NCBI GenBank assembly: GCA_016185605.1
Contig: JACPNG010000009.1
Coordinates: 53,838-117,837 of the forward strand
Length of the DNA stretch: 64,000 bases
Origin: Candidatus Woesearchaeota archaeon
GTDB taxonomy: Archaea; Nanobdellota; Nanobdellia; SCGC-AAA011-G17; JACPNG01
Direction: 5' to 3'
Both the position numbers and the translations under genes were made by a program. Shown here piece after piece: positions 8,987-44,538 of this stretch (positions are counted from its first letter, which is position 1; each line of letters starts with the position of its first letter). A model generated the notes under the pieces. That model worked only from the letters and a program-made list of their open reading frames with translations. It searched no databases and was not told the origin of the DNA.

Positions 8987-10105
8987 ATGCTAGTTTCTGT
9001 TGTATTACCGTGCAGAAATGAAGAAGAGACAATAGGAAGATGTATTAAAACAATTAAAGAAGTTTTTAAGAGGGATAAAATTGAGGGAGAGATTATTGTT
9101 TCTGATTCTTCTACAGATAAGAGTTATGAAATAGCAAAATCTCTTGGTGTTAGAGTCATTAAGCATAATAAGATTGGGTATGGTAATGCGTACATAGAAG
9201 CATTTAAACATACAAAAGGAAAGTATGTTGTAATGGGGGATTCTGATGAGACTTATAATTTTTATGATATTCCTAAATTTCTAAAAGAATTGAGAAATTA
9301 CGATTTAGTTATTGGAGATAGATTCAATGGATTGATTCATAAGAATGCCATGGACCCTTTACATAGATATTTGGGAAATCCATTGTTAGGATATACTTTA
9401 AGGCATTTTTTCAAAATAAATGTTCAAGATCCCCATTCTGGTTTTAGAGCGATAAAGAAAGAAAAACTAGATAGATTAAATCTAAAAGCTAATGGAATGG
9501 AGTTTGCATCAGAAATGATAATTAAAGCCCATAAAAATGGATTAAAGATTAAAGAAATTCCGATAAACTACTATCCAAGAAAAGGTCGTAGCAAATTAAA
9601 CCCTTTTAGGGATGGCTGGAGACATTTAAGATTGATGTTGTTGTACAGCCCAGATTATTTGTTTTTAGTTCCAGGATTATTATTATTTTTATTTGGTTCT
9701 ATATTTACCTCTGCTTTATTATTTGGACCCATAAATCTTTTTGGAATAATATTAGACATACACCCAATGATTTTAAGCAGTTTATTGACTATCTTAGGAT
9801 ACCAAATTATCTTATTGGGGTTGTATGCAAAAACATATGCTGTAATTCATCTAAAAGAAAAAGATGAATTAGTTAATCTAATTAATAAGTATATAAATCT
9901 AGAAAGAGGAAGTTTGGTTGGTTTATTGATCATATCGATTGGAGTTATTATGGGAATAAAAATATTCTATATTTGGAGCAGAACCAATTTTGGGGCTTTA
10001 GATCAAATAAGGCCCGCCATATTCATATTAACTTTAATTGTTATAGGAATACAAACAATATTCTCATCATTTTTATTAAGTATACTAGGATTAGAACAAG
10101 AATGA
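8987..10105 (+). CDS. GT2 polyprenol-phosphate glycosyltransferase (DPM1/AglD-like) with C-terminal TM segments
   Basis: 372 aa. N-terminal GT-A motifs VSVVLPCRNEEETIG and DSDETY (DxD). Four predicted C-terminal TM helices. Confidence 0.85.
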   Translation: MLVSVVLPCRNEEETIGRCIKTIKEVFKRDKIEGEIIVSDSSTDKSYEIAKSLGVRVIKHNKIGYGNAYIEAFKHTKGKYVVMGDSDETYNFYDIPKFLKELRNYDLVIGDRFNGLIHKNAMDPLHRYLGNPLLGYTLRHFFKINVQDPHSGFRAIKKEKLDRLNLKANGMEFASEMIIKAHKNGLKIKEIPINYYPRKGRSKLNPFRDGWRHLRLMLLYSPDYLFLVPGLLLFLFGSIFTSALLFGPINLFGIILDIHPMILSSLLTILGYQIILLGLYAKTYAVIHLKEKDELVNLINKYINLERGSLVGLLIISIGVIMGIKIFYIWSRTNFGALDQIRPAIFILTLIVIGIQTIFSSFLLSILGLEQE

Positions 10106-11172
10106 AAATAGCAATTGTTTATGATGCAATATATCCTTATGTAAAGGGTGGAGGGGAGAAAAGGATTTATGAGTTAAGCAAGATATTAAGTAAAAAACAT
10201 GAAATTCATTTATTTGGAATGAAGTATTGGAACGGCAATAATGTAATTAAGAGAGATAATGTTTATTTGCATGGTGTTTTTAACTCAATTAGCCTTTATA
10301 ATAAAAAGGGTAATAGGTCTTTATTACAACCTTTTCGCTTTAGCTTCTACTTATTTAAAGAATTGATGAAATACGATTTTGATCTAGTGGATTGTCAAAA
10401 TTTTCCATATATACCCTGTTTTATTTGTAAACTCTATTCAAAAATAAAAAATAAACCATTTATTATAACTTGGTTAGAAATTTGGAATGATAACTGGAAC
10501 AAGTATGGATTGTTTGGTTATATTGGAAAATTTATAGAAAGGATAAGCTTTAGGCTAACAAAAAATAATATAGTTTTATCTGATAATATGACAAAAATCA
10601 TAAAGGAATCTATAGTCATTCCTGCAGGAGTAGACCTAAAGAAAATAAATAAAATAAAGAAGAGAAAAGATAAATTTGATATTTTATTTGTAGGAAGATT
10701 AATCAAAGAAAAGAATGTTGATTTTATCATAAGATCTGTTGATAGAAATATTAAAGTAGGCATAATTGGGGATGGCCCAGAGAGAGAGAATTTGATTAAT
10801 CTTGTTAAAAAGCTTAATCTAAGAAATATAAAATTTTTCGGTTTTTTAGATGAAGATGAAGAAGTTTACTCTTATATGAAATCCTCTAAGATATTAGTTT
10901 TACCCTCAATAAGGGAAGGTTTTGGTATTGTTATTTTAGAAGCATTGGCTTGTGGCTGCAAAGTCATAGCAACAAACCATAAAAATAACAATGCCAAATA
11001 TTTGGCAGATAAAAACTTTATCTCTGAGACTAATATAAAAAGTTTAAGAAACAAGATTAAATATGGCTTAAAAAACAAGTACAACAATAATATTAATTTA
11101 GAAGATTTTGATATAAATAAGATATCAAAAGAATTAGAAAATTATTATCAAAGGTGTATAAATGAAATATAA
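10102..11172 (+). CDS. GT4 (group 1) glycosyltransferase
   Basis: The real start is MKIAIVYDAIYPYVKGGGEKR at 10102, overlapping the upstream stop by 4 nt; the track's earlier 9973 start is spurious. C-terminal GT4 motif REGFGIVILEALACGCKVIAT. Confidence 0.85.
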   Translation: MKIAIVYDAIYPYVKGGGEKRIYELSKILSKKHEIHLFGMKYWNGNNVIKRDNVYLHGVFNSISLYNKKGNRSLLQPFRFSFYLFKELMKYDFDLVDCQNFPYIPCFICKLYSKIKNKPFIITWLEIWNDNWNKYGLFGYIGKFIERISFRLTKNNIVLSDNMTKIIKESIVIPAGVDLKKINKIKKRKDKFDILFVGRLIKEKNVDFIIRSVDRNIKVGIIGDGPERENLINLVKKLNLRNIKFFGFLDEDEEVYSYMKSSKILVLPSIREGFGIVILEALACGCKVIATNHKNNNAKYLADKNFISETNIKSLRNKIKYGLKNKYNNNINLEDFDINKISKELENYYQRCINEI

Positions 11173-12610
11173 GCTGATTTTTATTGGTTTATTTATATTG
11201 ATATTAGCAATAAGTTACTATTGGTCTATTAAATCATGCTCTTATTGCTTTCAGAGTTATATCTCTCAAGAATATCTTTTTGAGGATAAAGATATTAATT
11301 TCAGTTCTGAATATATAGATAATACTATAAACATTGTTAAACATGGAACAAATAATATAATTGGCAGATTCGTAGGTAATATATTAATATTTGATTATCT
11401 AAATCTAGTATTTTGGATTTTTATAGCTACATTTACTACTTATTTGTTTTACAATAAAATATTCAATTTAGAAACTGGAACTTTTGCAGCCTTTATTTTT
11501 TTAACAAACCCAACATTAAATGTCATTGTTCACACAATAGTCTATTACTTTATTTCACTATTTTTAATCTATAAATTTTTAACAACTAAAAAGCTTTCAT
11601 TTTTATTTGGATTTTTATTAGTCTTATTAATATCATTTAACGTAGATGTTTCTCCCAGTTTTGTTATTTTAATTAGTTCTTTCTTTTTAGTATTATTTTA
11701 TTATATAATTAATTACATAAGTACTAGATATATCAGTAAAGAAGCTATATTATCTTTTTGTTTTTTTATCATAATTTTCATAATAATAATAACATTTGAG
11801 AGAAATTTTGTACTAGATTTATTAAGTAGGATCCCCTTAATTTTTGATAAATTGATTTTTTATCTCTCATCTTATCCAAAAACAGCATATTTCTATTTAT
11901 ATATTGTAAGCAGAGTTATTTTAATTGTCATACCTATATTTTATGTTTACAATATAATAAAAAATAAATTACAATTAACAAAAAAAGAAACTTTCATTTT
12001 TTCTTATTTTCTAACGGTCTTTCCATTACTAATCTTATTCATTTTATTTGATATCTCTGCAAGAATATTTGATTACTATGCTCCTTTATTAGCTGCAATT
12101 AGTTTCAGAGAGAGCAAAATATTTTTAAAAAAAGAGATAAGAGATAAAATAATAGTTTCAGTAGTAATATTTTTTACTTTGTTTTCTATATTCTTACATC
12201 ATATACCGCCTAGAAGCCTAGAAATATATGATAATGACTTATTGGATGGTTTAAACAATCTTCCCAAAGATTCGATTGTTTATACAGATGTATTTGTTGC
12301 CAATATTCTAATAACAAAATTAGATCATTTAAGTATAGTTGGTCCAGACTTTAATAAAGGGAATGAGTATAATAAAGTATACTATGAAAAGGACGTTAAT
12401 TATATAAAAAAACTATTTATCGATAAAAATGTTGAGTATTTTATAATCTCAAGACAATCATTAATTAGGGGATTAGATATATTAAATGCTCCGCATATAT
12501 TAAAACCGATAACCATTATAGAATATGATAACATGGAATTTTTAGATAAATATTATTCAAATGACGAGGTTTATATCTGGAGGATAGATGAAAATAGCAG
12601 TATTTCATGA
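11162..12610 (+). CDS. polytopic membrane protein (about 10 TM) with a soluble C-terminal domain; possible glycan polymerase or flippase-like
   Basis: 482 aa, Phe/Ile-rich helices, no catalytic motif recognised. Its position between GT genes suggests a role in glycan assembly. Confidence 0.55.
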
Positions 12611-13670
12611 CTATTTGGATTGTATAGGTGGAGGAGAGAAAGTAGCATTGATGATAGCTAGAATTCTAAAAGCCGATTTTATAACTACAGATGTTGATAA
12701 GGATGTTATTAATAAACTTGGATTCAATGATATTAAAATAATTTCTTTAGGCAATACAATTAAAATCCCCCCTTTAAAACAAATTTCAGCTTCTTATAAA
12801 TTTGCCAGAGCTGATTTTAGTAAAAAGTATGACTTATTTATTCTAAGTACGGGATGGAGTGTTTTTGCTGCCAAAAAACACAGACCTAATATTTATTATT
12901 GCCATAGCCCAGTCAGACCATTTTTTGATTTATATGAATTATTTAAGGAAAGAGAAAATTTAATTAAAAAACCAATATTCATTTTATGGGTTTATTTGCA
13001 TAGACATTTTCTTAAAAAGAGCATCATACATGTAAACAAATTTCTTTGCAATTCATTGAATACACAAAAAAGAATTAAAAAATACTATGGCAGAGAAGCG
13101 ATTATAGTTTACCCTTATGTTGATTGTTCTAAATATAAATATAAGAAGAATGGAGATTTTTGGTTGAGCGTCAATAGATTTTATCCTGAAAAAAGAATAG
13201 AACTACAAATTGAGGCATTTAGCAAGCTACCCAAAGAAAAATTAGTTATTGTTGGGGGATATGCTAGGGGAGATCATGCATTAAGATATATGAAAAAATT
13301 TAAGGATCTTCCAACTAATATAAGAATAATGGGTCAAATAAGTGAGAAAGAACTAATTAATCTATATGAAAATTGTAAAGCATATATAACAACAGCTTTA
13401 GATGAAGATTTTGGTATTACTCCATTGGAAGCCATGGCTGCCGGAAAACCAGTAGTTGCAGTAAATGAAGGAGGTTATAAAGAAACTGTTATTAATAATA
13501 AGACTGGAAAATTAGTTGATGCTAATATCAATGAAATAGTAAAAGCTATTAAAGAAATATCAAAAAATCCGAAAAAATATAGAAAAAATTGTGAGATACG
13601 GGCTAGAGAATTTGATCTGTTAATATTTAAACAAAAATTTGAAAAAACTATTTTAAATATTAAAAACTAA
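12588..13670 (+). CDS. GT4 (group 1) glycosyltransferase
   Basis: 360 aa. The N-terminus [19 protein letters not shown] parallels the 10102 paralog. Motif [19 protein letters not shown]. Confidence 0.85.
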
Positions 13671-14712: not shown

Positions 14713-14730
14713 TTTTTAAATTATATTTCA

Positions 14731-15582: not shown

Positions 15583-15583
15583 A

Positions 15584-17437
15584 TTAACTGCCTAAAACCA
15601 CATTACAGTAATCTTTTGATTCGTTAAAGTAATCAATTCTTTGATTTTTATATTCTAATAAGCCCTTACAACATAAAGATGAATATTCTTTATATTTTTT
15701 GCAATCCTTAATTCCAAATTTTATATCTCCTTTAATTTCTCCAATAACATATCCCAACCATATATAACAGTATTTATTATATTTTTTATCCAATTTTTCA
15801 CAAACTAATCCACCTTGTTCTGGATAATAGCCGTTATACCAACCAGTAAACCAACCAACACCACGATAACAATAAGGTCTATATTCTTCCTCAAGTGAAT
15901 TACAATCTTTGTCAATTAGAGATTTGTTATTTTCAAAACGGTATCTTATAGAAGTAACATAGCCAATGCCAAGATAACAATTATTTCTATGTGTTTCATT
16001 TATTTTACTACATGAATTTTTAAGAGTATTAAAATTGTAATATCCTATTGCATCAGTAACGCCAATACCAACCCAATTATAACAATCATCCCTATATTCT
16101 TCTTTTAGTTTACCACAACTCTCAAAAGCTTTGTCTGGCTGAAGTTTATTTTTCGCACCCAATACGAAACCCAAAACATTATAACATAAAGGTTTCGGAT
16201 TAGATTCTTTTTCAAAACTAAGATTAGATGAGATTAAACCAAAATTTGATATTAAGCCAATTATTATTAAAAAAGAAAATAAAAAAATAAATACCATTTT
16301 ATTTGATTTATATATTTCTAAAAGTGAGATGGCCATACAAATAAAGATAAATGGGAATAACGGCATTAAATATCTATATTGCCCTGAATAAATAGCACCA
16401 TCAAAACTAAAATTGCTCACTATATAAATTAGAAAAAAGAATATAACTACAAATAAAATAAATAACTGTTTTATATTATTAGATGGAATAATATCATAAT
16501 TAAATGGAATATTTATTAAATATCTATAATTCTTATATAGAAGATAAATAATTAAGAATAAGAATATAATATAATAAGAATAATTTAATATTTCTCTTTG
16601 AAATATTATCTCTCTGAAATTAAACGAGTTCGGAATGTCATACAATAAAAGATTTGTAAATTTATTAGTAATCTCCTGGACTTTATCTAAACTAAGATAA
16701 TTGCTATTAAATCCATATTTTATTTGATTTATGCCTATAAAATCATTTTGAATATTATAATAGAAAAATGGGGTTAAGCCTAAAATAAGAAAGAATATAA
16801 AAATAAAAAATTCTTTTTTTAAGAAAAACAATTGATCTTTAGTAAACCAGAGTAATAAACATGGAGGAAGAATAAATAAGAAAATATTTGAAAAGAATAT
16901 ACCAAATCCGCTAAAAGATCCAGCTAGAATAAGACTAATTTTCTTATCAGAATAAAAAAAATCTAGAAAGAAAAATAAAGATATAATTATAAATAAAGTT
17001 ATATGGATATGTCCGTGTCCTACTAAAAAACTTCTTACAGTATAAGAAGATGGGGAAAGGATAAATAAGATAGATGCATAAAAAGCAGCCTTATTATCAA
17101 AGAATTTCTCAACTAAAAGGTATATTGCTATTAACATACCCAAAGATAATATTATACCAACAAGAAGTAAAGAAAAAGTAGTTTTACCAAATATCAAAAA
17201 TAAAAACGCAGCTATAAATGGTGTAATTAATGTATTGCCATAATAAGCCTGATGTTGATAGTCTATGTATGGCTGTTTTAGTCCATCTCTTATCTCATTG
17301 GCTACAGTTCCTATATAACATACATCTATTGGATCCGCTAAGTCTATAGATGTGTAAGCTATTATTAATCTAGATAATAAAAAAACGATTATTAAAAAAA
17401 CTAAAGTTTTTTTATTTCTATTTATAGGAAATAACAT
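15584..17437 (-). CDS. polytopic membrane protein (GT-C-like N-terminal domain) with five C-terminal extracytoplasmic Cys-rich repeats
   Basis: 617 aa, about 12 TM helices. Then repeats of the form C-x8/9-C-[YW]-x-G-[VI]-G-[YW], e.g. ESCGKLKEEYRDDCYNWVGIGV, NSCSKINETHRNNCYLGIGYV, KDCNSLEEEYRPYCYRGVGWF, LVCEKLDKKYNKYCYIWLGYV. Confidence 0.6.
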   Translation of the reverse strand: MLFPINRNKKTLVFLIIVFLLSRLIIAYTSIDLADPIDVCYIGTVANEIRDGLKQPYIDYQHQAYYGNTLITPFIAAFLFLIFGKTTFSLLLVGIILSLGMLIAIYLLVEKFFDNKAAFYASILFILSPSSYTVRSFLVGHGHIHITLFIIISLFFFLDFFYSDKKISLILAGSFSGFGIFFSNIFLFILPPCLLLWFTKDQLFFLKKEFFIFIFFLILGLTPFFYYNIQNDFIGINQIKYGFNSNYLSLDKVQEITNKFTNLLLYDIPNSFNFREIIFQREILNYSYYIIFLFLIIYLLYKNYRYLINIPFNYDIIPSNNIKQLFILFVVIFFFLIYIVSNFSFDGAIYSGQYRYLMPLFPFIFICMAISLLEIYKSNKMVFIFLFSFLIIIGLISNFGLISSNLSFEKESNPKPLCYNVLGFVLGAKNKLQPDKAFESCGKLKEEYRDDCYNWVGIGVTDAIGYYNFNTLKNSCSKINETHRNNCYLGIGYVTSIRYRFENNKSLIDKDCNSLEEEYRPYCYRGVGWFTGWYNGYYPEQGGLVCEKLDKKYNKYCYIWLGYVIGEIKGDIKFGIKDCKKYKEYSSLCCKGLLEYKNQRIDYFNESKDYCNVVLGS

Positions 17438-17525: not shown

Positions 17526-18161
17526 ATGTTAATAAACGATTTAGGAATAATAATAAAAGAGTTATGGATAACTCATCCGACAGATCGATACTCCACTTTT
17601 CTAGCAAAATTTATTTCAAAATATAAATTTAAAAATGTTTTAGAGATAGGAACAGGAACCGGAATAGTGTCGATATGTTTGGCTAAAAATGGTAGTAAAG
17701 TCACAGCAACAGATATAGATAAGAAAATAATAGATTTAGCGCAAGAAAACGCCAAATTAAACAATGTTAAAATTAAGCTTATAGTATCAGATTTATACGA
17801 AAATGTTAAAGGAAGATATGATTGTATTGTATTTAGCATTCCTTATATTTTATCAAAAAAGAGATATAACTATATAAATTTTTTGTACGATAAATTTATG
17901 CCAGAAGTTATAGAATCCAGATTGACTTATATGATAGATAATAGTATTATTGGCAGATTAATTTCTAGAGACAGGTGGAATAAATTAAAATATCTTTTAA
18001 AATCTAGCAAAGATTACCTAAATAAAAATAGATTTATATATTTAGTAGTTTTTAAAAGTGATATTAAGATTATTAAAAGATTTGACAATATAGCTTATAG
18101 TATAATAGAGTTTCCATTTGTTACATCTCAATGTATAGTTAAAATATCATATAAAAATTAA
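17526..18161 (+). CDS. class I SAM-dependent methyltransferase (small MTS/HemK-like domain)
   Basis: 211 aa. SAM-binding motif VLEIGTGTGIVSICLA. A degenerate motif IV (FSIPY). Confidence 0.7.
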   Translation: MLINDLGIIIKELWITHPTDRYSTFLAKFISKYKFKNVLEIGTGTGIVSICLAKNGSKVTATDIDKKIIDLAQENAKLNNVKIKLIVSDLYENVKGRYDCIVFSIPYILSKKRYNYINFLYDKFMPEVIESRLTYMIDNSIIGRLISRDRWNKLKYLLKSSKDYLNKNRFIYLVVFKSDIKIIKRFDNIAYSIIEFPFVTSQCIVKISYKN

Positions 18162-18234: not shown

Positions 18235-20898
18235 ATGACTTTAAATAAATACTTTAAAAAGTATAAAGTTCCAATAATTATATTCTCTTTAATTGCTATA
18301 ATTTTTACTTTACCATTATTCCAAAAGTTTGAAAATATAGGAATTGTTGATTGGGATTTGTGGTTATTTTATAATGAAGCAGCTAGAAAAAGTATTTTAG
18401 AATATCATCAAATACCATTTTGGAATCCTTATTATTGTGGTGGAAATATATTATTGGCTCATCCGGAATTTCCATTATTCTCATTACAATTCCTATTTGT
18501 TTTAATATTTGGTACTATCCTTGGAATAAAATTGTCTATTCTTTTTTTCTTCTTTCTTGGACTAATCTCAATGTATATCTTAACCCAATATCTAAGATTT
18601 TCAAAATTAGCTTCTTATGCCTCTTCATTTATTTATATGTTAAGCGCACCTTTTTCTATAAGGATTGGTGCTGGACAATTTAGCTATTTAGCTATGGCTT
18701 TTTATCCATTGGCCTTTCTTTTTTTCATTAAAGGACTAAAGAATTTTAAATATATTCCCCTATCTGTAATATTTCTTGTTCTAGCCTTTTTCTCTGGAGC
18801 TATATATGAATTATCTTTTTTTATTCTTTTTTTAACTATTTACGCTATAATAAAAAGCATAACTGAAAGAAGAATAAAACCTTTAATAGTCTTAATTATT
18901 ATTATCTTATTTGCTTTTTTAGTTGCATCAATAAAATTAATTCCCCTCTTAGATTTTGTCATTGATAATCCAAGAACTACCGAATTTGCCCTCGGAGAAT
19001 CTACTAAATTAAATGAATTTTTTGACTATATTTTCAAATCTACAAGATTAAGCAAATATTATATCGGTGGCGGGACTCCAAATGATCCGATATGGTGGGA
19101 AGGGGACATAGCGATAGGTATACTTGGAATTTTATTAGTAATTATTGGTGGAATCTTTTCTCTTAAAAATAAAAAAGAATTTGCTATTACAACAATAATA
19201 TTTATTTTGATATTTCTTGGAAGTACTTTATCTATTAGTTTATGGAAAATATTACATTTTTTCCCACCATTTAATTCATTTTTTGTAATTGGAAGATTGG
19301 GCATGATATTAACTTTCTCATTTGCACTTCTCGCTGGATTTGGTTTTTCAGAATTACAAAAAAAGCTTGATAGGAGCAAATCTATATTCTATTTATTTAT
19401 CTTTCTAATTCTACTTCTATTAAGCTCTTTATTTTATATGAATTTAGGAATTATTAATGACTCTATTAGAATTCAGATACCAAAAATAGACAAAAGCGAT
19501 AACTTTTACCAAACAATTGATATAATAAAATATGATGGACCTCTATCTAGCAACCATTATCTTACAATTAAACAAAATAAAGGAGACCTAACATGCTTTG
19601 AGGAGATTAGATCTCTAACTTCTGTTTCTGCTATCCCAAAAGAATATAATGATTATAAAGGAGAAGCTTATCTAAACGAAGAAGGTAAAGCAGAAATAAC
19701 TTACTTCTCTCCCAATAGGATAATTATCAAAACCGAAAGCAATAAAGAAAATTTATTAATTTTAAATCAAAACTTTGAAAAAAATTGGAAAGTTAAATCT
19801 GGAGGTGTTGAAAACTATAATGGACTGTTATCCACAAAGATACCTAAAGGAAATTCAACTATAACATTCTACTATCTTCCACAAAGTTTTATTATTGGAT
19901 CAATTATGTCACTTATTTCTATTATCTTAATTTTTATTTTTACTAAAATGAATAATAAAAATGCAATTATGATTATTTCAATTATATTAGTGTTGTCCAT
20001 ATTGTTATATCTATATATCTCAAAAGAGAATATAGAAATTCCCAGCATTTATAATAAACTAAATGAAGATAAAGAGTATTATTCTATTATAGAAATACCG
20101 TTTACAAGTCCTTTATTCCATGCTATAAGGTATTATGATGTGCAACAAAATAAAGAAGTGATATGGCACCATCCAAGTCAAAAAATATCTTATAAAATTT
20201 ATTTGTTAAAAAAGATATTTTTTGCTGATGATAAAAACGATGAGAAAGTTGTGAGTGACATAATAATTCAAGATCCACAAAAAATCGGAATTTCAGTGCT
20301 TAATTATTATAATATTAAAAAAGTTTTATTGCATAAAAAATGGTATGGTTCACATTTAGATTGGAAGATATTCTCTACACCACCATCCCCTTATAATTAT
20401 AGCAATTACAAAGATTGGTACGGTAATGAACTTTATAACATAACTAAAAATTTCTTAGATAAGGAATTTATAAAAATTTATGAAGATGATGAAATTATCG
20501 CTTATGACGTTCCTAAAGAAAAAGAAAAACAACATTTTATTATAATTGATAAAGGATGGTATTGGCTGGAATTAGATGATAAAGGAAAAAAATTTGGTTG
20601 GATTGAAGATAAAGCTTCAATAAAGATAATGTCTTCCAAAAAAATGAGTGTAAATCTAAGCTTTGACACATTTAACTTTTATGAACCAAAAACATTGGAG
20701 ATTTATCAAAATAAAAAGTTTATAGAAGATTATAAGATAGTAGGAAATAGTAATATAAATGTTAGATTAATGTTAAATGAGGGAGAAAACTATATAGAAT
20801 TCAAGACTAGAGAAAAATGTAGAAAACCCTCAAAAGTATCTGAAAGTGAGGACAAAAGATGCTTGAGTTTGGCATTAATGGATCTAGGCTTGGAATAA
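18235..20898 (+). CDS. large polytopic membrane protein (887 aa) with extracytoplasmic C-terminal domains; a YfhO/GT-C-like glycan transferase is possible
   Basis: At least 12 TM helices in the N-terminal 400 aa, an extra TM around aa 560, then a soluble C-terminal region. It has WWEGD rather than the STT3 WWDYG motif, so it is not called AglB. Confidence 0.65.
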   Translation: MTLNKYFKKYKVPIIIFSLIAIIFTLPLFQKFENIGIVDWDLWLFYNEAARKSILEYHQIPFWNPYYCGGNILLAHPEFPLFSLQFLFVLIFGTILGIKLSILFFFFLGLISMYILTQYLRFSKLASYASSFIYMLSAPFSIRIGAGQFSYLAMAFYPLAFLFFIKGLKNFKYIPLSVIFLVLAFFSGAIYELSFFILFLTIYAIIKSITERRIKPLIVLIIIILFAFLVASIKLIPLLDFVIDNPRTTEFALGESTKLNEFFDYIFKSTRLSKYYIGGGTPNDPIWWEGDIAIGILGILLVIIGGIFSLKNKKEFAITTIIFILIFLGSTLSISLWKILHFFPPFNSFFVIGRLGMILTFSFALLAGFGFSELQKKLDRSKSIFYLFIFLILLLLSSLFYMNLGIINDSIRIQIPKIDKSDNFYQTIDIIKYDGPLSSNHYLTIKQNKGDLTCFEEIRSLTSVSAIPKEYNDYKGEAYLNEEGKAEITYFSPNRIIIKTESNKENLLILNQNFEKNWKVKSGGVENYNGLLSTKIPKGNSTITFYYLPQSFIIGSIMSLISIILIFIFTKMNNKNAIMIISIILVLSILLYLYISKENIEIPSIYNKLNEDKEYYSIIEIPFTSPLFHAIRYYDVQQNKEVIWHHPSQKISYKIYLLKKIFFADDKNDEKVVSDIIIQDPQKIGISVLNYYNIKKVLLHKKWYGSHLDWKIFSTPPSPYNYSNYKDWYGNELYNITKNFLDKEFIKIYEDDEIIAYDVPKEKEKQHFIIIDKGWYWLELDDKGKKFGWIEDKASIKIMSSKKMSVNLSFDTFNFYEPKTLEIYQNKKFIEDYKIVGNSNINVRLMLNEGENYIEFKTREKCRKPSKVSESEDKRCLSLALMDLGLE

Positions 20899-20977: not shown

Positions 20978-22105
20978 TTGAGGTTTAGAAAGATATTATT
21001 ATTAGTAATGACAATTTTTCTATTTTTTTTAATAGGCGAATTAATAACTAGAGCTTTTCTATACTTTGATAAAGAGAATTTAGAATATATACATATTGAA
21101 AAATATGATGAAATTAATAAATATCCAGACAAAGAAGTTTCTTTAATTGAAATTATAAAACTTAGCAAAAATAGAAAAATTATATATGAGCTAAGGCCTA
21201 ATGTTACTGGAGTTTATACTAAAAAAAATGTTAAAATAAACTCCAGAGGATTAAGAGACTACGAATACACTTTAGAAAAGCCAAGCAATACTTTCAGGAT
21301 TGTTGGAATTGGAGACTCTATAATGTTTGGATTAGGCATTGATTTAGAAGATACATTTCTAAAAGTTTTGGAAAGAAAGCTTAATGAAAATTCAAACTCT
21401 ATTAAGTATGAGGTAGTTAATTTTGCAGTTCCAGGTTATAACACAGTTATGGAGGTTGAGACATTGAAAGAAAAAGCTATAAAATATAATCCAGATTTAG
21501 TTATATTAAGTTTTAGTAGTAATGATATGCATCTTCCCAATTTTATAAAAAATAAAATAAAATTTAGATTGGATAAATCTTACTTTTACGATTTTATTCT
21601 TCAGAGAATATCACATTTAAGGCAAAAAGAAGATTTAAAAGCGAGACTTATTGGCTCCCCATTTAGAGTTGATGAAAATGGCTCTTTCTACGAATATGAA
21701 AGTGAACTTTTAAATGTTCCTCCAGAGTATAAAGATTTGGTTGGATGGGATAGCATAAAAAGAGCACTTAAAGATTTAAATGATTTTACATCTAAAAAAG
21801 ATATAAAAGTTATTGTTCTTTTAGATTACAGCGACAATGAAATTATTGAACCATATATAAGGAATAATGATTATTATGGCTATTCAGAAAAAGTAACGTA
21901 TAATCAAGAAGTTAAAAAACATGCAAAGGGGTATAAATTTTATTGGTTGGATCCTTTTTTTGGATTCTCCGAGTATATGAATAAAAATAATGCTACATTT
22001 TCTGATTTGATAGTATCAGAAATAGATCACCCGAATGAGAGATTTAATCAAATTATAGGAAACCAATTATTCAATTTTTTAGTAGAAAATAATCTTGTTG
22101 GTTAA
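20978..22105 (+). CDS. membrane-anchored SGNH/GDSL hydrolase (candidate glycan O-acyl esterase or transferase)
   Basis: 375 aa. N-terminal TM. Block I is IVGIGDSIMFGLG (GDS nucleophile). The C-terminus has the DHPNERFNQI His block. Confidence 0.75.
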   Translation: MRFRKILLLVMTIFLFFLIGELITRAFLYFDKENLEYIHIEKYDEINKYPDKEVSLIEIIKLSKNRKIIYELRPNVTGVYTKKNVKINSRGLRDYEYTLEKPSNTFRIVGIGDSIMFGLGIDLEDTFLKVLERKLNENSNSIKYEVVNFAVPGYNTVMEVETLKEKAIKYNPDLVILSFSSNDMHLPNFIKNKIKFRLDKSYFYDFILQRISHLRQKEDLKARLIGSPFRVDENGSFYEYESELLNVPPEYKDLVGWDSIKRALKDLNDFTSKKDIKVIVLLDYSDNEIIEPYIRNNDYYGYSEKVTYNQEVKKHAKGYKFYWLDPFFGFSEYMNKNNATFSDLIVSEIDHPNERFNQIIGNQLFNFLVENNLVG

Positions 22106-22190: not shown

Positions 22191-22952
22191 ATGTTCACCA
22201 AACAGGAGATTAATCTAATAAAAGAGTTAACACTAAATGAGCTTAAACTTAAATATAGAAATTCTTTTCTTGGTTTTTCATGGTCTTTTTTAAAGCCATT
22301 ATCTATGTTAATGATACTATACCTAGTTTTTAAGGTTTTTATTAAAATAGATGTCAATAATTATGCTTTGGTTTTGTTATTAGGAATATTAATATGGAAT
22401 TTCTTTGCAGAAAGTACATCTTTTGGTTTAAGTTCTATAAATTCAAAAGCCAGTATAGTTAAAAAGATTAATTTCAAATATGAGATATTGATTATAAGTA
22501 ACTGTTTAACTTCTTTTTTATCTTTTTTATTAAATTTTTTGGTCTTTATTATAATCCTACTATTTGCCAAAGGCATGCCATCATTATTAAGTATTTATAT
22601 TATAATTCCAATAATAGAGATATTCCTAATATCTTTAGGCTTATCTTTTATTCTGTCAATTCTTTTTATAAGATATAAAGACATAATACATATTTGGGAT
22701 ATTTTTTTACAAATAGGTTTTTGGATAAGTCCAATAGCCTATCCAATAGACCTTATTCCTTTAGAGTATAAAAAAGCTTATATGTTAAATCCATTAGCTA
22801 ATATTATAACTGCCTCAAGAGATGTAATATTAAATAATAGACCCCCTTCATTAAGTTTGATATTTACAAGTTTGATAACAACATTAGTCATTTTGGTATT
22901 TGGTTATTTGATTTATAGATATAATCATAAGAATATAGGGGAGTATTTATGA
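22191..22952 (+). CDS. ABC-2 type polysaccharide exporter permease (Wzm/TagG-like)
   Basis: 253 aa, 6 TM helices, ABC-2 family organisation. Overlaps the downstream ATPase by 4 nt. Confidence 0.8.
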   Translation: MFTKQEINLIKELTLNELKLKYRNSFLGFSWSFLKPLSMLMILYLVFKVFIKIDVNNYALVLLLGILIWNFFAESTSFGLSSINSKASIVKKINFKYEILIISNCLTSFLSFLLNFLVFIIILLFAKGMPSLLSIYIIIPIIEIFLISLGLSFILSILFIRYKDIIHIWDIFLQIGFWISPIAYPIDLIPLEYKKAYMLNPLANIITASRDVILNNRPPSLSLIFTSLITTLVILVFGYLIYRYNHKNIGEYL

Positions 22953-29038: not shown

Positions 29039-29449
29039 GTGGATTTTATGGAGGATATACTAAATAAGGTATTAAGTAATGATGAAATAGCTAAAAAATC
29101 TAGAGGATTAAAAAAACAAGGGAAAATCATAGTAATGGCTAATGGAAGTTTTGACCTTCTTCATATAGGTCATATAGATCTTTTAAGGCAAGCAAAAAGA
29201 AAAGGTGATATTCTTATTATTGCCATAAATAGTGATTTATCTATAAGAACTTATAAAGGGAATGATAGACCAATTATACCTGAAAAAGAGAGGGCACTTA
29301 TGCTAGCCTCTCTATTCTTTGTTGATCATGTTACTATATTTAATGAAAGTAAAGCATTAAATATTATAGAAAAGATTAAACCTGATATTTTAGTCAAGGG
29401 GATAAGGCCTGATCCAGAAAGATTAGAAGAAGAAAAAAGAATTAGTTAA
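29039..29449 (+). CDS. HldE-domain-II-like sugar-phosphate nucleotidyltransferase, copy 2; its C-terminal tail is cut off by a frame change at an A6 run
   Basis: 136 aa. MANGSFDLLHIGHIDLL (HxGH), INSDLSIRTYKGNDRPIIPEKER, DILVKGIRPDPE. Strongly similar to E. coli HldE-II (VNSDASTKRLKGDSRPV...LLVKGGDYKPEE). The missing conserved tail LFGGKIEYVKESISRSTSDIIEDIRG is encoded in the next frame right after the stop. Confidence 0.7.
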   Translation: MDFMEDILNKVLSNDEIAKKSRGLKKQGKIIVMANGSFDLLHIGHIDLLRQAKRKGDILIIAINSDLSIRTYKGNDRPIIPEKERALMLASLFFVDHVTIFNESKALNIIEKIKPDILVKGIRPDPERLEEEKRIS

Positions 29450-29960: not shown

Positions 29961-30032
29961 ACAACATCTAGTGGACAAATTATAGATAAAATAAGGGGTG
30001 TCAGTAGTGAGGGTATTAATAATAGTCAATGA
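29568..30032 (+). CDS. HldE-domain-II-like sugar-phosphate nucleotidyltransferase, copy 3 (recent tandem duplicate of copy 2)
   Basis: 154 aa. MVNGVFDMLHIGHIGFL. The stretch PIIPEKER...RLEEE is identical at nucleotide level to copy 2. Confidence 0.75.
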   Translation: MPEVSIKILSNDEIAKKSRGLKKQGKKVIMVNGVFDMLHIGHIGFLRKAKEKGDVLFVAVNSNQSVKSYKGENKPIIPEKERVLMLASLFFVDHVTIFNESKALNIIEKIKPDILVKGIRPDPERLEEENVTTSSGQIIDKIRGVSSEGINNSQ

Positions 30033-31410
30033 TTTTATCATAGAACCTTTAGGTTTAATGTCAATAATTGCAGTCCTTAAAAAGGAGAGTCATAAAGTTG
30101 AACTTCTAAAAATAAACTCCAGAAGAAAAGAATTTGGTTCTGCTAGAAATGATGAGGAGATATTTAATTTTTTGGAGAAATTTTCACCAGATTTGATATT
30201 GTATAGTACTACAACAGGCATGCATAAATTATATCTGAATATAAATAAAAAACTGAAAGAGAGATTTAATTTCATATCAGTTTTTGGCGGAATGCATGTT
30301 TCTTTCTTTCCAGACTTTATTAATGAAGAAAGTGTTGATATTATATGTATTGGTGAAGGAGAAGAAGCAATAAGTGAGTTAGTTAATAATCTGGAAAGTG
30401 GCGAAGAAATAATAAACATAAGAAATTTATGGATTAAAAAGGGCCATCAATTATATAAAAATAATTTAAGACCATTAATGGAAGATTTGGATAGTCTACC
30501 GTTTCCTGACAGAGAAATAGTCTATAGGTATGGACTCCATAAAAGAAATCCAATAAAAAACTTCATAACAACAAGGGGTTGCCCATATAAATGTTCTTAT
30601 TGTTTTAATGACGGCTTTTATAAGCTTTATAACCTAAATGGTAACAGAAGAGTTAGATCGAGAGGCGTAAATAATATAATAAGCGAAATTAATGAAGTAA
30701 AAAATAAATATAAATTAAAGTTAGTTTATTTTCAAGATGATATTATCACATTAAATGAGAACTTCAAAGAGTTAATGGAAGAATATAGAAGAGAAATTAA
30801 CATCCCTTTCCATGCACATATAAGACCAGATTTAGTTAATGATTATACAATTAAATTATTAAAAAAGGGTGGTTGTCTTAGTGTTACAATGTCTGCCGAA
30901 ACAGCCAATGACAATACAAGAAATAATATGATTAATAGAAACATGTCTAAACAGAGTATATATCTGGCTGCTAAGCTACTCCATAAATATGATATAAAAT
31001 TCAGAATAGAAAATATGTTGGGATTGCCTAATGAAACTTTAAAAGATGCATTTGATACATTAGAAATGAACATAAAATGTAAACCAACAATTGGTTGGGC
31101 ATCGATATTTCAACCATATCCTGGAACAGAATTATTTAATTATACTAGAGATAATAACTTGTTTAACGGGGAGGTTGATACTTTTAACAATTCTTTTTTT
31201 GATAACAGTGTTTTGGATATAAAAAACAAAAAAGAAGTAGAGAATCTTCAAAAACTATTTTCTATAACTGTCTCTTTTCCCTTCTTAAAGCCCATAACTA
31301 AACAGCTCATAAAACTGCCGAAAAACAATTTATTCAATTTTGTGCATGACGGATGGAAAAGTTACTGTTTTGATAATAAATTATATAAAGTAAATGGTTT
31401 TAAGAGTTAA
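29998..31410 (+). CDS. B12-binding-domain radical SAM protein (class B)
   Basis: 470 aa. The N-terminal Rossmann-like domain RVLIIVNDFIIEPLGLMSIIAVLKK is typical of the cobalamin-binding domain. CX3CX2C in TTRGCPYKCSYCFN. Confidence 0.8.
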   Translation: MSVVRVLIIVNDFIIEPLGLMSIIAVLKKESHKVELLKINSRRKEFGSARNDEEIFNFLEKFSPDLILYSTTTGMHKLYLNINKKLKERFNFISVFGGMHVSFFPDFINEESVDIICIGEGEEAISELVNNLESGEEIINIRNLWIKKGHQLYKNNLRPLMEDLDSLPFPDREIVYRYGLHKRNPIKNFITTRGCPYKCSYCFNDGFYKLYNLNGNRRVRSRGVNNIISEINEVKNKYKLKLVYFQDDIITLNENFKELMEEYRREINIPFHAHIRPDLVNDYTIKLLKKGGCLSVTMSAETANDNTRNNMINRNMSKQSIYLAAKLLHKYDIKFRIENMLGLPNETLKDAFDTLEMNIKCKPTIGWASIFQPYPGTELFNYTRDNNLFNGEVDTFNNSFFDNSVLDIKNKKEVENLQKLFSITVSFPFLKPITKQLIKLPKNNLFNFVHDGWKSYCFDNKLYKVNGFKS

Positions 31411-31413
31411 AAC

Positions 31414-32910: not shown

Positions 32911-32997
32911 GATTTAGGAAAGGTTATTAATATAATGAATGATAGGCTATAATATTTTTTAAATTAAAATTTATTTTTAAAATATAAGAAGTGGTAA

Positions 32998-34362: not shown

Positions 34363-34373
34363 CCACAAAACAT

Positions 34374-36430: not shown

Positions 36431-36480
36431 TTTTATATAACAATTATATTTAAATATATTTAATCACTCCAATTCGAGAT

Positions 36481-39879: not shown

Positions 39880-39880
39880 A

Positions 39881-42882: not shown

Positions 42883-42883
42883 T

Positions 42884-43111: not shown

Positions 43112-43113
43112 TT

Positions 43114-44538
43114 CTAAGGTAGCTTATAAATATAAGTTTTATCATTATATACTTTGGTATAACCACAATCTAATTTCGTTTGAGATAATATAAAATCTAT
43201 ATCATATCTTTTAATTATATTTGTCTTTTCATCACAGTCTACTTCATAAAATCTTCTAACCATATCTATATTTCCACTCAATAAATTACCTTTTGTATGT
43301 GCAATAACAAGATTCTTGCTTATTGGATAAATAGCACTAGATTGAGGTAATGGTGACATAATTACCTTACTCTTAAATTGTGATAATAATTTTATCGCTT
43401 CATAATCTTTATCTTCAACAACATGATATAAACCAGAATCCTTATCTAAGTTGTAGTAATTAAAAAATGTGAAATAAAAAACAATTAATAGTATGATTGG
43501 AATTAACCAAACTAATTTACCTTTTAAAACACCCAATAGGGAGTATAAACCAATAGAAGATAAAGGAACTAACCCAATCATAGCATAATAAAGTACTCTC
43601 TGATAAGGGAATAAAATACTAAATCCAAAATTATGAAATAAAAATATTAAAGATAAAGTAATAAATGAGATTATAAGAAAAATTCTTGAGTTTTTATTCT
43701 TAATACTTGGATAGATTCCGATAAATGCTAATAATGTTGGAATTATTCCATAGAATGACGGTAAAAAATATTGTTTTTCAACATATCCCCAACCTTCTTC
43801 TATTATTAGCCAATCTAATAAAAGATTAAAGATTTCCGAATTTTCCCTAATTAGGATAAATAATAATATAATGATTGATGTTGGAATTATCATCAAAAAT
43901 ATGGATAATGGTCTAAAATTTTCAATCTCTTTATGATGTAATAATAAATAGATAAAACTAACAATTAATAATAAAATTAATGATATTGCATGTACAAATA
44001 AAAGTAGAATCAACGGGATAACGCTATAAAAAAAATATTTTATTTTATTCTCCTCAAAGTATTTTAAGAAAAATAAAAAATAAAGGAATATAATGGGAAT
44101 TGCTAAGGTTAATGGCAGAAAGAACCATAACCCCTGTATGTTTATATTACTTTTTAAAGATGAAAAAAATAATATTGAAAATAATCCAATATAGAAATTA
44201 CTTGTTATTTGATGAACTAATAAAAATAAGATAAAAGCTGCAAGAGTTGCAAAAATAGCCGGAAGAAATTTATAACCCATAATTGGATCAATAAATCTGA
44301 ATAAAAAAGACAAAAATACAGTAAATCCCGGCTCAAGGTTTGGCTGAAATGGTTTATCTACTAAATTCGGGTTTCTTTGCAATTCTTTTGTTTCTGAAAA
44401 ATAAACAGCTTTAGAAATATGTTGCCATTCATCCACATGTAAAGGATATTTATAATCAGAATGCGGGCTATAAACCAAGATAAAAATTAATATTAAAGCT
44501 ATTATTAATAAAGTATATTCATATTTCTTAAATTTCAT
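43114..44538 (-). CDS. polytopic membrane protein (possible GT-C-like; VDEWQH in the first loop)
   Basis: 474 aa, about 12 TM helices. DEWQH loosely resembles GT-C DE-type motifs. It is first in the minus-strand operon with the carbamoyltransferase. Confidence 0.55.
   Translation of the reverse strand: MKFKKYEYTLLIIALILIFILVYSPHSDYKYPLHVDEWQHISKAVYFSETKELQRNPNLVDKPFQPNLEPGFTVFLSFLFRFIDPIMGYKFLPAIFATLAAFILFLLVHQITSNFYIGLFSILFFSSLKSNINIQGLWFFLPLTLAIPIIFLYFLFFLKYFEENKIKYFFYSVIPLILLLFVHAISLILLLIVSFIYLLLHHKEIENFRPLSIFLMIIPTSIIILLFILIRENSEIFNLLLDWLIIEEGWGYVEKQYFLPSFYGIIPTLLAFIGIYPSIKNKNSRIFLIISFITLSLIFLFHNFGFSILFPYQRVLYYAMIGLVPLSSIGLYSLLGVLKGKLVWLIPIILLIVFYFTFFNYYNLDKDSGLYHVVEDKDYEAIKLLSQFKSKVIMSPLPQSSAIYPISKNLVIAHTKGNLLSGNIDMVRRFYEVDCDEKTNIIKRYDIDFILSQTKLDCGYTKVYNDKTYIYKLP

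Follow-up and report, generated by a model that had tools for sequence, protein, structure and literature searches.

The stretch of DNA analysed here, referred to as the window, spans 64,000 nucleotides (nt) of a metagenome-assembled genome (MAG) of Candidatus Woesearchaeota, within the DPANN archaea. We focused on positions 8987-44538, which the original prediction, made from the sequence alone, had described as a surface-glycan biosynthesis island of about 35 genes. The open reading frames (ORFs) of the window were searched against Pfam and NCBIfam and scored against the curated cut-offs. These searches confirmed the island, the positions of its genes and nearly every family named for it, but counted 30 closely packed ORFs of at least 100 amino acids (aa) plus one frameshifted gene, arranged in six operon-like blocks (Table 1). 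At least 27 of the 30 consecutive ORFs carried glycan-assembly, sugar-tailoring or radical S-adenosylmethionine (SAM) domains, and the GC content of the region was 25.9%, compared with 31.6% and 31.0% in the left and right flanks. Together with the synteny found elsewhere, this indicated that the clustering is more than chance and confirmed that positions 8987-44538 are a real gene cluster for making, exporting and decorating a cell-surface sugar chain. The window is archaeal, since genes for ATP-dependent DNA ligase, FtsZ and GatD lie at 0.6-6.8 kb.

Table 1 Features of the surface-glycan island and of the neighbouring candidate acceptor operon. Genes are named in the text by their first coordinate. 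GT, glycosyltransferase; TM, transmembrane helix; SDR, short-chain dehydrogenase/reductase; rSAM, radical SAM enzyme; PLP, pyridoxal phosphate; HTH, helix-turn-helix; AF2, AlphaFold 2; core, part of the gene set conserved in relatives.
Position	Strand	Feature	Main match
8987..10105	+	AglJ-like GT2, polyprenyl-phosphate hexose synthase type, 4-5 C-terminal TM	Pfam GT2 92.8 bits
9973..11172	+	GT4 glycosyltransferase	Glycos_transf_1 118 bits
11162..12610	+	Membrane protein with 9 TM; probably a remote GT-C relative of 43114	
12588..13670	+	GT4 glycosyltransferase	Glycos_transf_1 124.8 bits
13667..14362	-	Short soluble GT2, polyprenyl-phosphate sugar synthase-like (AglJ/ArnC-like)	GT2 97 bits
14359..14712	-	Cupin, CapF/WbjC C-terminal-domain type, sugar 3-epimerase-like	PF14667 53 bits
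14731..15582	-	RmlD-like SDR 4-ketoreductase	RmlD_sub_bind 142 bits; TIGR01214 139.8 bits (cut-off 224)
15584..17437	-	GT-C, PMT_2 family, 10 TM	PMT_2 35.7 bits (cut-off 26.1)
17526..18161	+	SAM methyltransferase, HemK2/MTS-type fold, core	MTS 54.7 bits; HemK_rel_arch 83 bits (cut-off 87)
18235..20898	+	YfhO-like polytopic GT-C, 887 aa, 11 TM, core	
20978..22105	+	Membrane-anchored SGNH/GDSL esterase or acyltransferase	Lipase_GDSL_2 47 bits
22191..22952	+	Wzm ABC-2 permease, core	ABC2_membrane PF01061 54 bits, above cut-off
22949..24187	+	Wzt ATPase with C-terminal glycan-binding domain, core	PF00005 84 bits; Wzt_C PF14524 105.5 bits
24163..25122	+	rSAM with SPASM/twitch-type C-terminal Cys cluster, core	Radical_SAM 66.9 bits; SPASM 26.4 bits
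25095..25661	+	188-aa coiled-coil protein, core, translationally coupled to GT4-GT9 gene	
25643..27706	+	Bifunctional GT4-GT9, core, candidate chain builder	Glycos_transf_1 86 bits
27691..28190	-	HldE-domain-II-like nucleotidyltransferase, third copy, frameshifted	Fragments of 86 + 40 aa
28171..28965	-	264-aa protein	No match in Pfam or NCBIfam
29039..29449	+	Nucleotidyltransferase copy 1, C-terminally truncated, end in another frame	CTP_transf_like 65.6 bits
29568..30032	+	Nucleotidyltransferase copy 2, 16-aa internal deletion relative to orthologs	Ortholog of core gene downstream of GT4-GT9
29998..31410	+	B12-binding-domain rSAM (B12a)	B12-binding 62 bits; Radical_SAM 76 bits
31414..32910	+	Membrane-anchored alkaline-phosphatase/sulfatase-superfamily enzyme, Thr at nucleophile position	Sulfatase 171 bits
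32998..34362	+	GT-C, PMT_2 family	PMT_2 27.5 bits (cut-off 26.1); LA_3751/2 family 49.6 bits
34374..35063	+	Short GT2, polyprenyl-phosphate sugar synthase-like	GT2 118.9 bits
35060..36430	+	B12-like rSAM (B12b), most AprD4-like	Radical_SAM 57.7 bits
36481..37482	+	GT2 with two C-terminal TM, MftF-like	GT2 113 bits
37466..38533	+	rSAM, SPASM/twitch-like (rSAM355)	Radical_SAM 61.8 bits
38530..39879	+	B12-like rSAM (B12c), paired with DegT	Radical_SAM 71 bits
39881..41032	+	DegT/PLP sugar aminotransferase	DegT 177 bits
41206..42882	-	NodU/CmcH-type O-carbamoyltransferase, accessory	Carbam_trans_N 314 bits; Carbam_trans_C 241 bits
43114..44538	-	DUF6541-type GT-C, oligosaccharyltransferase-like fold, core	AF2 model
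46034..49550	+	Divergent HTH protein and 994-aa type-II-anchored sequon-dense surface protein, candidate acceptor, outside island	

The synteny comparison relied on L002, a metagenome contig, L086 and L088, from the Woesearchaeota GCA_002762985 and GCA_016203115, and L087, from Pacearchaeota. A profile search with the B12c family against species-representative genome contigs returned relatives at 25-32% identity alone, and close synteny came from metagenome contigs. A conserved core was common to the window, L002 and L088, that is, it was kept in two other Woesearchaeota: the methyltransferase, the YfhO-like GT-C, Wzm, Wzt, the SPASM-type rSAM, the coiled-coil protein, the GT4-GT9 fusion, an HldE-domain-II-like (HldE-II-like) nucleotidyltransferase, a DegT-family gene and the DUF6541 GT-C. 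The genes in common were 36-71% identical in amino-acid sequence and the accessory genes differed. L002 is a compact cluster (36-69% identity over common genes) with the order methyltransferase, YfhO-like protein, Wzm, Wzt, SPASM rSAM, coiled-coil protein, GT4-GT9, nucleotidyltransferase, AglJ-like GT2 with TM helices, B12c, DegT and 43114 homolog. L088 combines the core with an SGNH gene, a Wzt_C domain, a carbamoyltransferase, a deacetylase and an SDR, and has no AglJ-like GT2 with TM helices. This GT2 and the pair of B12-like rSAM and DegT were present in the window and L002 only of the three genomes; the L088 DegT (32% identity over 169 aa to 39881) is paired with the SDR, not with an rSAM. 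From the comparison with L002 and L088, segments 9973-17437, 28171-38530 and 41206-42882 were considered accessory modules around the core, a behaviour that resembles that of O-antigen loci.

The Wzm/Wzt exporter of the original prediction was confirmed. PF00005 and PF14524 both scored above their cut-offs in Wzt, and its NCBIfam matches were to TagH/Wzt models, the best being the teichoic-acid exporters TagH. Wzm and a Wzt carrying Wzt_C form the pair expected for ATP-binding cassette (ABC)-transporter-dependent glycan export; orthologs of Wzm were found in L002, L087 and L088, and no Wzx/Wzy-type match was obtained for any ORF of at least 100 aa. The candidate chain builder, 25643, encodes a second domain matching Glyco_transf_9 PF01075 (44.4 bits, cut-off 22); it scored 76 bits with heptosyltransferase II (cut-off 134.6), and the heptosyltransferase equivalogs were all under cut-off. 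Its orthologs in relatives were 61-63% identical. No family search matched the coupled coiled-coil protein 25095, whose orthologs in L002, L088 and L089 are 159 aa long. A 63-nt (21-aa) tandem duplication at 25441-25566 is absent from these 159-aa orthologs. Such a length polymorphism of a coiled coil beside a polymerase-like GT recalls what is reportedly the molecular ruler of WbdD. The conserved methyltransferase 17526 and 25095 would be the parts of a WbdD-like terminator, but there is no kinase and neither protein is homologous to WbdD.

Three HldE-II-like nucleotidyltransferase copies (27691-28190 on the minus strand, 29039 and 29568), missed by the original prediction, lie beside the GT9 fusion. 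The frameshifted copy gave tblastn matches in two frames and showed an identical break in the independent Logan assembly of SRA run SRR12113424, on a short contig (L001) that also carries the GT4-GT9 gene; it is either a pseudogene or an assembly error. Copy 29039 scored 132 bits with rfaE_dom_II (cut-off 181.5) and 43 bits with the glycerol-3-phosphate cytidylyltransferase TagD, making a TagD-type CDP-glycerol/teichoic-acid reading of these genes less likely. The tandem pair 29039 and 29568 is 84% identical in DNA, and the three paralogs surround the 264-aa gene 28171; segment 27691-30032 has the look of a recombination scar where an inserted module meets the conserved core. GT9 and an HldE-II-like gene adjoin in three genomes. 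In L087, the DUF6541, rSAM, Wzt and Wzm genes are joined to GT2, GT17 and a SIS/GHMP-kinase/NTP-transferase/HAD set, the full GDP-heptose complement (GmhA/HddA/HddC/GmhB type). These findings strengthened the earlier suggestion of heptose, although GmhA, a heptose kinase and GmhB were not found in the window and HldE-II-like genes alone represent the supply set; the GT9 substrate is possibly heptose.

The remaining GT genes indicated a repeated pairing of a polyprenyl-phosphate-sugar synthase with a GT-C, as had been predicted. The three DPM1-like GT2 enzymes (8987, 13667 and 34374) had AglJ, dolichyl-phosphate hexose transferase or ArnC as their best NCBIfam matches, all under cut-off: AglJ scored 163, 102.6 and 125 bits (cut-off 325), and ArnC scored 66.6 and 72 bits with 13667 and 34374. 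Two of them share an operon with a GT-C, 13667 with 15584 and 34374 with 32998. The third, 8987, has a 56%-identical ortholog beside B12c/DegT in L002, 2.6 kb from the 43114 ortholog with B12c and DegT alone between them. The three predicted GT-C proteins were all supported, 15584 and 32998 by PMT_2 scores above cut-off and 43114 by its structure model; 15584 has a 50% homolog in L088. A further GT-C-type protein is 18235, whose YfhO score of 26.2 bits is under the cut-off of 28.5 and whose 34% homolog in L086 carries PF09586. Pfam and NCBIfam searches with 11162 matched nothing, and hhalign aligned it with the 43114 family (probability 89.9%, E 1.7e-6), indicating that it is probably a GT-C-type protein as well. 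Two GT4 genes (9973 and 12588), the additional GT2 36481 and the GT4-GT9 fusion were confirmed. Gene 36481 (MftF 116 bits, cut-off 280) opens a recurrent GT2-rSAM-rSAM trio.

The product of 43114 (474 aa, locus tag HYX17_01965) gave an AF2 model with a pLDDT of 93.7 and an unambiguous GT-C fold. Its fold-match figures were highest for the oligosaccharyltransferases STT3B (24.0), PglB (20.8) and Archaeoglobus fulgidus AglB (20.6) and lower for Pmt4 (19.0), ALG12 (19.0) and ArnT (18.3), so that the fold and the C-terminal domain were closest to protein oligosaccharyltransferases (OSTs) of the STT3/PglB/AglB type. A P-x-H-x-D-E motif is invariant in the family immediately past the first TM helix, so that the first external loop carries an acidic motif, as in STT3. 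As modelled, 43114 is an OST-like GT-C. It has neither the WWDYG motif nor a Pfam STT3 match, nor any other Pfam match, and the first two of these points kept us from assigning it to the STT3 family. Among 1.84 billion representatives, the family comprised about 525 clusters (50% identity, E<=1e-30), with named members from Woese-, Pace-, Nano- and Altiarchaeota and one Candidate Phyla Radiation (CPR) bacterium, some annotated DUF6541. Comparison of the family with 32998 by hhalign found them unrelated except for the common acidic motif after the first TM helix. Of the island's proteins, the DUF6541 GT-C is the strongest candidate for the last step, transfer to an acceptor.

The five rSAM cores (24163, 29998, 35060, 37466 and 38530) make up an unusual radical SAM load, as originally noted. 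The CxxxCxxC core of PF04055 was above cut-off in the three B12-like enzymes 29998, 35060 and 38530, of which 29998 alone passed the cut-off of the B12-binding domain PF02310 (62 against 32.1 bits), so that the description of all three as B12-type was upheld in part. The top solved-structure match of all three was AprD4 (6fd2), with E values of 1.9e-14, 7e-28 and 7.4e-14, respectively. HpnJ was the best NCBIfam model for 35060 and 38530, at 160-170 bits against a cut-off of 577.6 (169.6 bits for 35060), and the AprD4 model reached at best 119 bits against 500. The residues C199/C203/C206 are invariant in the B12c family, and the B12c-DegT pair is kept in L002 (67%/56% identity) and in L003-L005 (40%/33%).

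The claim of two SPASM-type enzymes was borne out for 24163; for 37466, which is SPASM/twitch-like, no significant Pfam SPASM match was found. Conserved at 66-79%, 24163 has invariant C22/C26/C29 (CxxxCxxC) and C226/C244/C288/C291/C295, and three genomes place it between Wzt and GT4-GT9. Its AF2 model (pLDDT 81) was closest in fold to BlsE (7vob, TM 0.73), followed at TM 0.56-0.63 by MoaA, SkfB, SuiB, anSME (0.57-0.60), PqqE and DesII. Full-length matches of 37466 to NirJ2/AhbD-type models were all under cut-off and its solved-structure matches (SkfB, viperin) were weak and generic; orthologs in L020, L026 and L078 scored 169-272 bits. None of the five enzymes reached an NCBIfam equivalog cut-off (HpnJ, AprD4, BchE, PhpK). 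By sequence or fold, four of the five have their closest characterised relatives (AprD4, HpnJ, BlsE) among sugar-modifying enzymes, which is a resemblance and not membership. AprD4 is the non-methylating diol-dehydratase of apramycin C3'-deoxygenation and BlsE is a cytosylglucuronate decarboxylase. The five rSAMs would act on sugar substrates, nucleotide- or lipid-linked. By analogy with AprD4/AprD3, BtrN with its aminotransferase and DesI/DesII, the conserved B12c-DegT pair would most likely form a keto-sugar by radical dehydration or oxidation and then transaminate it. C-methylation, foreseen by the original prediction, may be carried out by B12a; the solved structure closest to all three B12-like enzymes is that of the non-methylating AprD4.

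Clusters dense in rSAM and GT2 genes were also found in other lineages. L003-L005, which have bacterial-type neighbours (L25, Pth), contain an LPG_synthase_TM gene, an unknown gene, a B12c-like gene (40%), DegT (33%), GT2, rSAM, PMT_2 and more GT2/PMT_2 pairs. In distant B12-rSAM loci of species-representative genomes (n = 57, at least 8 kb), a second B12 rSAM was present in 28, a polyprenyl-phosphate-type GT2 within 5 kb in 18 and DegT in 5. The contiguous trio of 36481-like GT2, 37466-like rSAM and B12 rSAM recurred in L020 and L026, one MAG being from Thaumarchaeota and one bacterial, and the pair of 36481-like and 37466-like genes also in an Omnitrophota MAG. These clusters are a recurrent, uncharacterised theme of uncultured lineages, and this genome is not a one-off. 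It was also observed that loci L074, L011, L020 and L026 of uncultured bacteria and archaea hold 3-5 B12-like rSAM genes interleaved with AglJ-like GT2 genes, some of them adding an alkaline-phosphatase (AP)-superfamily gene or DegT, and that B12-like rSAM and GT2 genes are joined by carbamoyltransferase genes in other loci, L014 among them. This type of cluster is widespread and so far undescribed. Literature searches, which left most subscription journals outside, found no description of radical SAM enzymes in Wzm/Wzt-type glycan loci, of DPANN glycan loci or of DUF6541, and nothing directly relevant on AprD4 homologs in polysaccharide loci.

The tailoring enzymes named originally, namely the carbamoyltransferase 41206, the SGNH enzyme 20978, the methyltransferase 17526 and the Thr-type sulfatase-superfamily enzyme 31414, were all recovered. 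The carbamoyltransferase has a 53% ortholog in L088 and is absent from L002; 20978 has an N-terminal TM helix and a 58% ortholog in L088, and 17526 is syntenic in L002 and L088. The latter has a HemK2/MTQ2-like N-methyltransferase fold with SIPY replacing the family NPPY, and could, speculatively, methylate an amine (of an amino sugar), acting as an N- and not an O-methyltransferase. In 31414, which also has an N-terminal TM helix, T106-L-P-S-F110 aligned with the S-x-P-x-R of a solved sulfatase: the C/S-x-P-x-R motif is absent, with Thr106 at the formylglycine position and Phe for Arg. The idea that a SPASM rSAM matures 31414 as an anSME was rejected on this basis, Thr replacing the Cys/Ser and the Arg missing. 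Carbamoyl, acyl and probably phospho substituents would follow from 41206, 20978 and 31414, and the carbamoyl, amino and (probably) phospho tailoring predicted earlier was supported. The predicted 3-amino-3,6-dideoxyhexose route was rejected. The RmlD-like reductase and DegT were present, but the supposed FdtA (14359, FdtA 24.3 bits against a cut-off of 23) is a CapF/WbjC-type cupin whose NF047837 match spans model positions 256-364 of 372, in a separate operon 25 kb from DegT, and RmlA and RmlB were not in the window. The best NCBIfam matches of 39881 were the C4-aminotransferases LegC/PseC/ArnB/DesI, all under cut-off, so that any position specificity read from them is tentative.

Divergent from 43114 lies an operon for an HTH protein and a 994-aa surface protein (46566-49550). 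As predicted, this surface protein and its neighbour are sequon-dense: 46566 contains 70 NxS/T sequons against 23.2 expected by shuffling (z 11.3), 69 of them in the ectodomain (48 NxT, 21 NxS), and the next product (49659-50633, 324 aa) contains 18 against 5.9 (z 5.7). The last 60 or so aa of 46566 are common to both proteins; its N-terminal segment of about 103 aa, probably cytoplasmic, appears coiled-coil-like by eye and is followed by one TM helix. The enrichment argues for N-glycosylation in the organism. In L086, the 43114 homolog is likewise divergent from an HTH homolog (46% identity) and a large surface-protein homolog (27%), and the locus further contains DegT, SDR, methyltransferase, B12 rSAM, deacetylase, YfhO and GT2 genes. 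Because of the sequon enrichment and this conserved divergent arrangement, it is plausible that the 46566 and 49659 proteins are acceptors of the glycan, as the original prediction had supposed.

Collectively, we read the island, with somewhat better than even confidence, as a modular Woesearchaeota surface-glycan locus combining an ABC-transporter-dependent polysaccharide pathway, extracytoplasmic decoration by dolichyl-phosphate sugars and GT-Cs, and radical sugar tailoring. From the families, the synteny and the GT-C fold, we infer the following steps. The GT4, GT2 and GT4-GT9 enzymes would assemble a chain on the cytoplasmic side of the membrane, using dolichyl phosphate as carrier, with the AglJ-like enzyme as a possible primer because no WecA-/PglC-type gene was found in the window. 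The GT9 half would be supplied by the adjoining HldE-II-like nucleotidyltransferase, possibly with heptose. Wzm/Wzt would export the chain, the C-terminal domain of Wzt recognising a terminal cap. The three AglJ/ArnC-like GT2s would put single tailored sugars onto dolichyl phosphate and, after flipping, four to five GT-Cs (15584, 18235, 32998, 43114 and probably 11162) would move the sugars or the whole chain to the exported glycan or the acceptor. Final transfer would be made by the OST-like 43114, maybe to the sequon-dense neighbour protein. As judged from the operons, tailoring would come in three self-contained modules: GT-C, reductase, cupin epimerase and polyprenyl-phosphate synthase (15584/14731/14359/13667); rSAM, AP-superfamily ectoenzyme, GT-C, polyprenyl-phosphate synthase and rSAM (29998-36430); and GT2, rSAM, rSAM and DegT (36481-41032). 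The SDR and cupin would yield a 6-deoxy or epimerised sugar, DegT an amino sugar, the carbamoyltransferase an O-carbamoyl group, the SGNH enzyme an acyl group and the Thr-nucleophile ectoenzyme a phospho-substituent, to which the five rSAMs would add their modifications.

Several observations weigh against this proposal. No window ORF of at least 100 aa matched PF00953 or PF02397 (the WecA/AglH and PglC initiators), for which a gene may lie elsewhere in the genome; no GtrA/ArnEF-type small flippase was found among island ORFs of that size, and no 4,6-dehydratase, GmhA or sugar kinase in the window. Wzt_C is absent from the Wzt of L002, so cap recognition is not a core feature. All nucleotidyltransferase copies deviate from their orthologs, and the activated-sugar supply of GT9 is thus possibly defective here. 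PF02310 was under cut-off in two of the three rSAMs called class B (22.6 bits for 35060, 21.3 bits for 38530), which have a class-B-like architecture despite these sub-threshold domains. The rSAMs, GT2s and DegT were all under NCBIfam equivalog cut-offs, so that substrate assignments are all by analogy, and matches to HpnJ and to a "lipid B12 rSAM" would also fit lipid substrates. The organism is uncultured.

One other reading, which we regard as a real but minor possibility, is that the island makes an AglB-dependent N-glycan (or an O-glycan) of the adjoining surface proteins, containing 3-amino-3,6-dideoxyhexose, C-methyl sugars and heptose, with the dolichyl-phosphate-sugar/GT-C pairs acting like Haloferax AglD/AglS. 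The strong ectodomain sequon enrichment of 46566 and 49659, the AglJ-like GT2s, GT9 with its HldE-II-like gene and the conserved neighbourhood with the surface-protein operon agree with it. It is opposed by the lack of an STT3/AglB match in any window ORF, by the CapF-type cupin without RmlA/RmlB and the C4-aminotransferase matches of DegT, and by a nearest solved rSAM relative that is a dehydratase and not a methylase; furthermore, the archaeal N-glycosylation pathways studied to date are not known to rely on Wzm/Wzt export. That no recognisable ligase or AglB was found in the window would instead suit a product that is not linked to protein, such as a lipid-anchored lipoglycan, a teichoic-acid-like polymer or a capsule, exported by Wzm/Wzt and decorated outside by the GT-Cs, SGNH and AP-superfamily enzymes, comparable to CsbB/YfhO glycosylation of lipoteichoic or wall teichoic acid or to mycobacterial lipoarabinomannan. 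The YfhO-like GT-C with a CsbB/AglJ-like GT2 bearing TM helices, the TagH matches of Wzt and an LtaS/EptA-related ectoenzyme with a Thr nucleophile point the same way. We consider such a product unlikely, since the fold and C-terminal domain of 43114 resemble protein OSTs, the link to the sequon-dense operon is conserved and the nucleotidyltransferases resemble heptose-1-phosphate adenylyltransferases more than glycerol-3-phosphate cytidylyltransferases.

The rSAM-rich right arm (29998-39879) could also remodel membrane or carrier lipids, by an HpnJ/calditol-synthase-like ring contraction of a glycolipid head group or by methylation or cyclisation of host-derived isoprenoid chains. HpnJ and the calditol synthase Cds are proposed to contract the rings of lipid-linked hexoses (PMC13459092). 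NCBIfam matches to HpnJ, "lipid biosynthesis B12-binding/radical SAM protein", HpnR and Tes, all under cut-off, are consistent with this idea, as are the LPG_synthase_TM (HpnL-like) gene that opens the L003 module and the trios of B12 rSAM, GT2 and carbamoyltransferase in bacterial MAGs. Set against it, the scores are 3-4 times under the family cut-offs, the rSAM genes alternate with, and are translationally coupled to, DegT, GT-C and AP-superfamily ectoenzyme genes, the window contains no lipid-synthesis gene, and the nearest solved structures, AprD4 and BlsE, act on free or nucleoside-linked sugars; lipid remodelling is therefore very doubtful. Least credible of all, and close to dismissible, is that the SPASM-type 24163 and 37466 are protein or peptide maturases (an anSME for 31414, or enzymes of ribosomally synthesised and post-translationally modified peptides) in a mosaic of unrelated functions. 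The SPASM domain, NCBIfam matches to many peptide maturases and anSME (42.9 bits) and the nearby sulfatase-family gene speak for it, but formylglycine is impossible to make from the Thr-x-Pro-x-Phe of 31414, 24163 is locked in the core and fits BlsE better in fold than anSME, and no conserved short precursor-like ORF lies beside 24163 or 37466. Returning to the modular locus with ABC-dependent export, we also considered a more specific version, which as a whole is quite improbable: 43114 would be a minimal, WWDYG-less STT3/AglB relative and the OST of a previously unrecognised ABC-transporter-driven protein glycosylation, moving the Wzm/Wzt-exported chain onto the divergent sequon-dense surface protein, with amino-deoxy sugars made by AprD4/BlsE-like radical SAM enzymes and DegT replacing NAD-dependent 4,6-dehydratases, in a toolkit common to DPANN, Thaumarchaeota and several bacterial MAG lineages.

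The type of system proposed, ABC-transporter-dependent assembly with polyprenyl-phosphate-sugar/GT-C decoration, is already known, and the radical SAM tailoring set and the OST-like GT-C are its new features. The O-polysaccharide systems of Escherichia coli O8/O9a and Klebsiella reportedly use Wzm/Wzt with a carbohydrate-binding Wzt C-domain, WbdA-type multidomain GTs and the coiled-coil terminator WbdD, and the S-layer glycan pathways of Geobacillus and Aneurinibacillus are said to use Wzm/Wzt likewise. The island resembles ABC-dependent O-polysaccharide systems in having Wzm with Wzt_C, a bifunctional soluble GT, no Wzx/Wzy, and a methyltransferase and a separate coiled-coil protein beside a polymerase-like GT; the GDP-heptose gene set of Aneurinibacillus has its counterpart in the related locus L087. 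It differs in its archaeal DPANN host, in lacking a WecA-type initiator and a WaaL/WsaB-type ligase in the window and the WbdD kinase, and in carrying five rSAMs and four to five GT-Cs, which those systems do not have. As in ArnB-ArnC-ArnT, which places Ara4N on lipid A, and as in GtrA/B/V, CsbB-GtcA-YfhO, AglD/AglS of Haloferax and DPA/Emb-Aft of mycobacteria, a DPM1/AglJ/ArnC-like GT2 adjoins a GT-C within one operon, here three times; a DegT aminotransferase within the module recalls ArnB, and an SDR step adjoining a polyprenyl-phosphate synthase recalls DprE2. Unlike in Arn/Gtr-type decoration, there is no small flippase (GtrA/ArnEF), the acceptor is only a candidate, and an rSAM stands where NAD chemistry of the ArnA type would give the keto-sugar. 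With the tailoring by AprD4/AprD3, BtrN, DesI/DesII, GenK and BlsE, the island shares the pairing of rSAM and DegT genes and the structure matches (AprD4 to E 7e-28, BlsE for 24163), whereas identities are low, NCBIfam cut-offs are unmet and the context is an archaeal surface glycan and not a secondary-metabolite cluster. A GT2 beside an rSAM is also found in HpnI-HpnJ-HpnK(-HpnL) and Sulfolobus Cds, and LPG_synthase_TM in the L003 module; in contrast to these systems, there are no hopanoid or tetraether genes, Wzm/Wzt, GT-C and DegT lie alongside, and the HpnJ score is far under cut-off. Compared with STT3/AglB/PglB, 43114 shares the acidic motif and differs in its length and in lacking WWDYG and the Pfam STT3 match.

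The borders of the island were also inspected. A scan found neither tRNA genes nor flanking direct repeats, and an integrative-island signature was rejected; a promoter/terminator scan was at chance level, its sigma-70 (bacterial) model not being meaningful for an archaeon. An FG-GAP repeat surface protein (7641-8909; six repeats with about 160-nt spacing) lies directly upstream and is not sequon-enriched (3 observed, 2.8 expected), and a DUF6036 nucleotidyltransferase (7074-7514) lies near this border. At the opposite end, an AbiEii toxin gene and an adjoining upstream ORF, a possible AbiEi antitoxin with no family match, occupy 44542-45844 between the DUF6541 GT-C gene and the HTH/surface-protein operon; in L086 the GT-C gene and this operon directly adjoin. 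A complete SUF-type Fe-S operon (58176-63746, minus strand: SufC-like ATPase, NifU-like, SufS, SufD, SufB, SufA-like) lies 14 kb downstream of a locus needing at least five [4Fe-4S] enzymes, and is probably housekeeping.

The genomes of DPANN archaea are tiny, and these organisms rely on contact with host cells. Here about 35 kb is spent on one surface glycan, for which close relatives keep the core and swap accessory genes, as O-antigen loci vary. If our model is true, the cell-cell interface of these episymbionts would be a variable, heavily tailored glycan, and rSAMs akin to AprD4, BlsE or HpnJ would serve primary envelope-glycan synthesis in many uncultured anaerobes. The small OST-like DUF6541 family would then be a concrete candidate for the missing transfer step.

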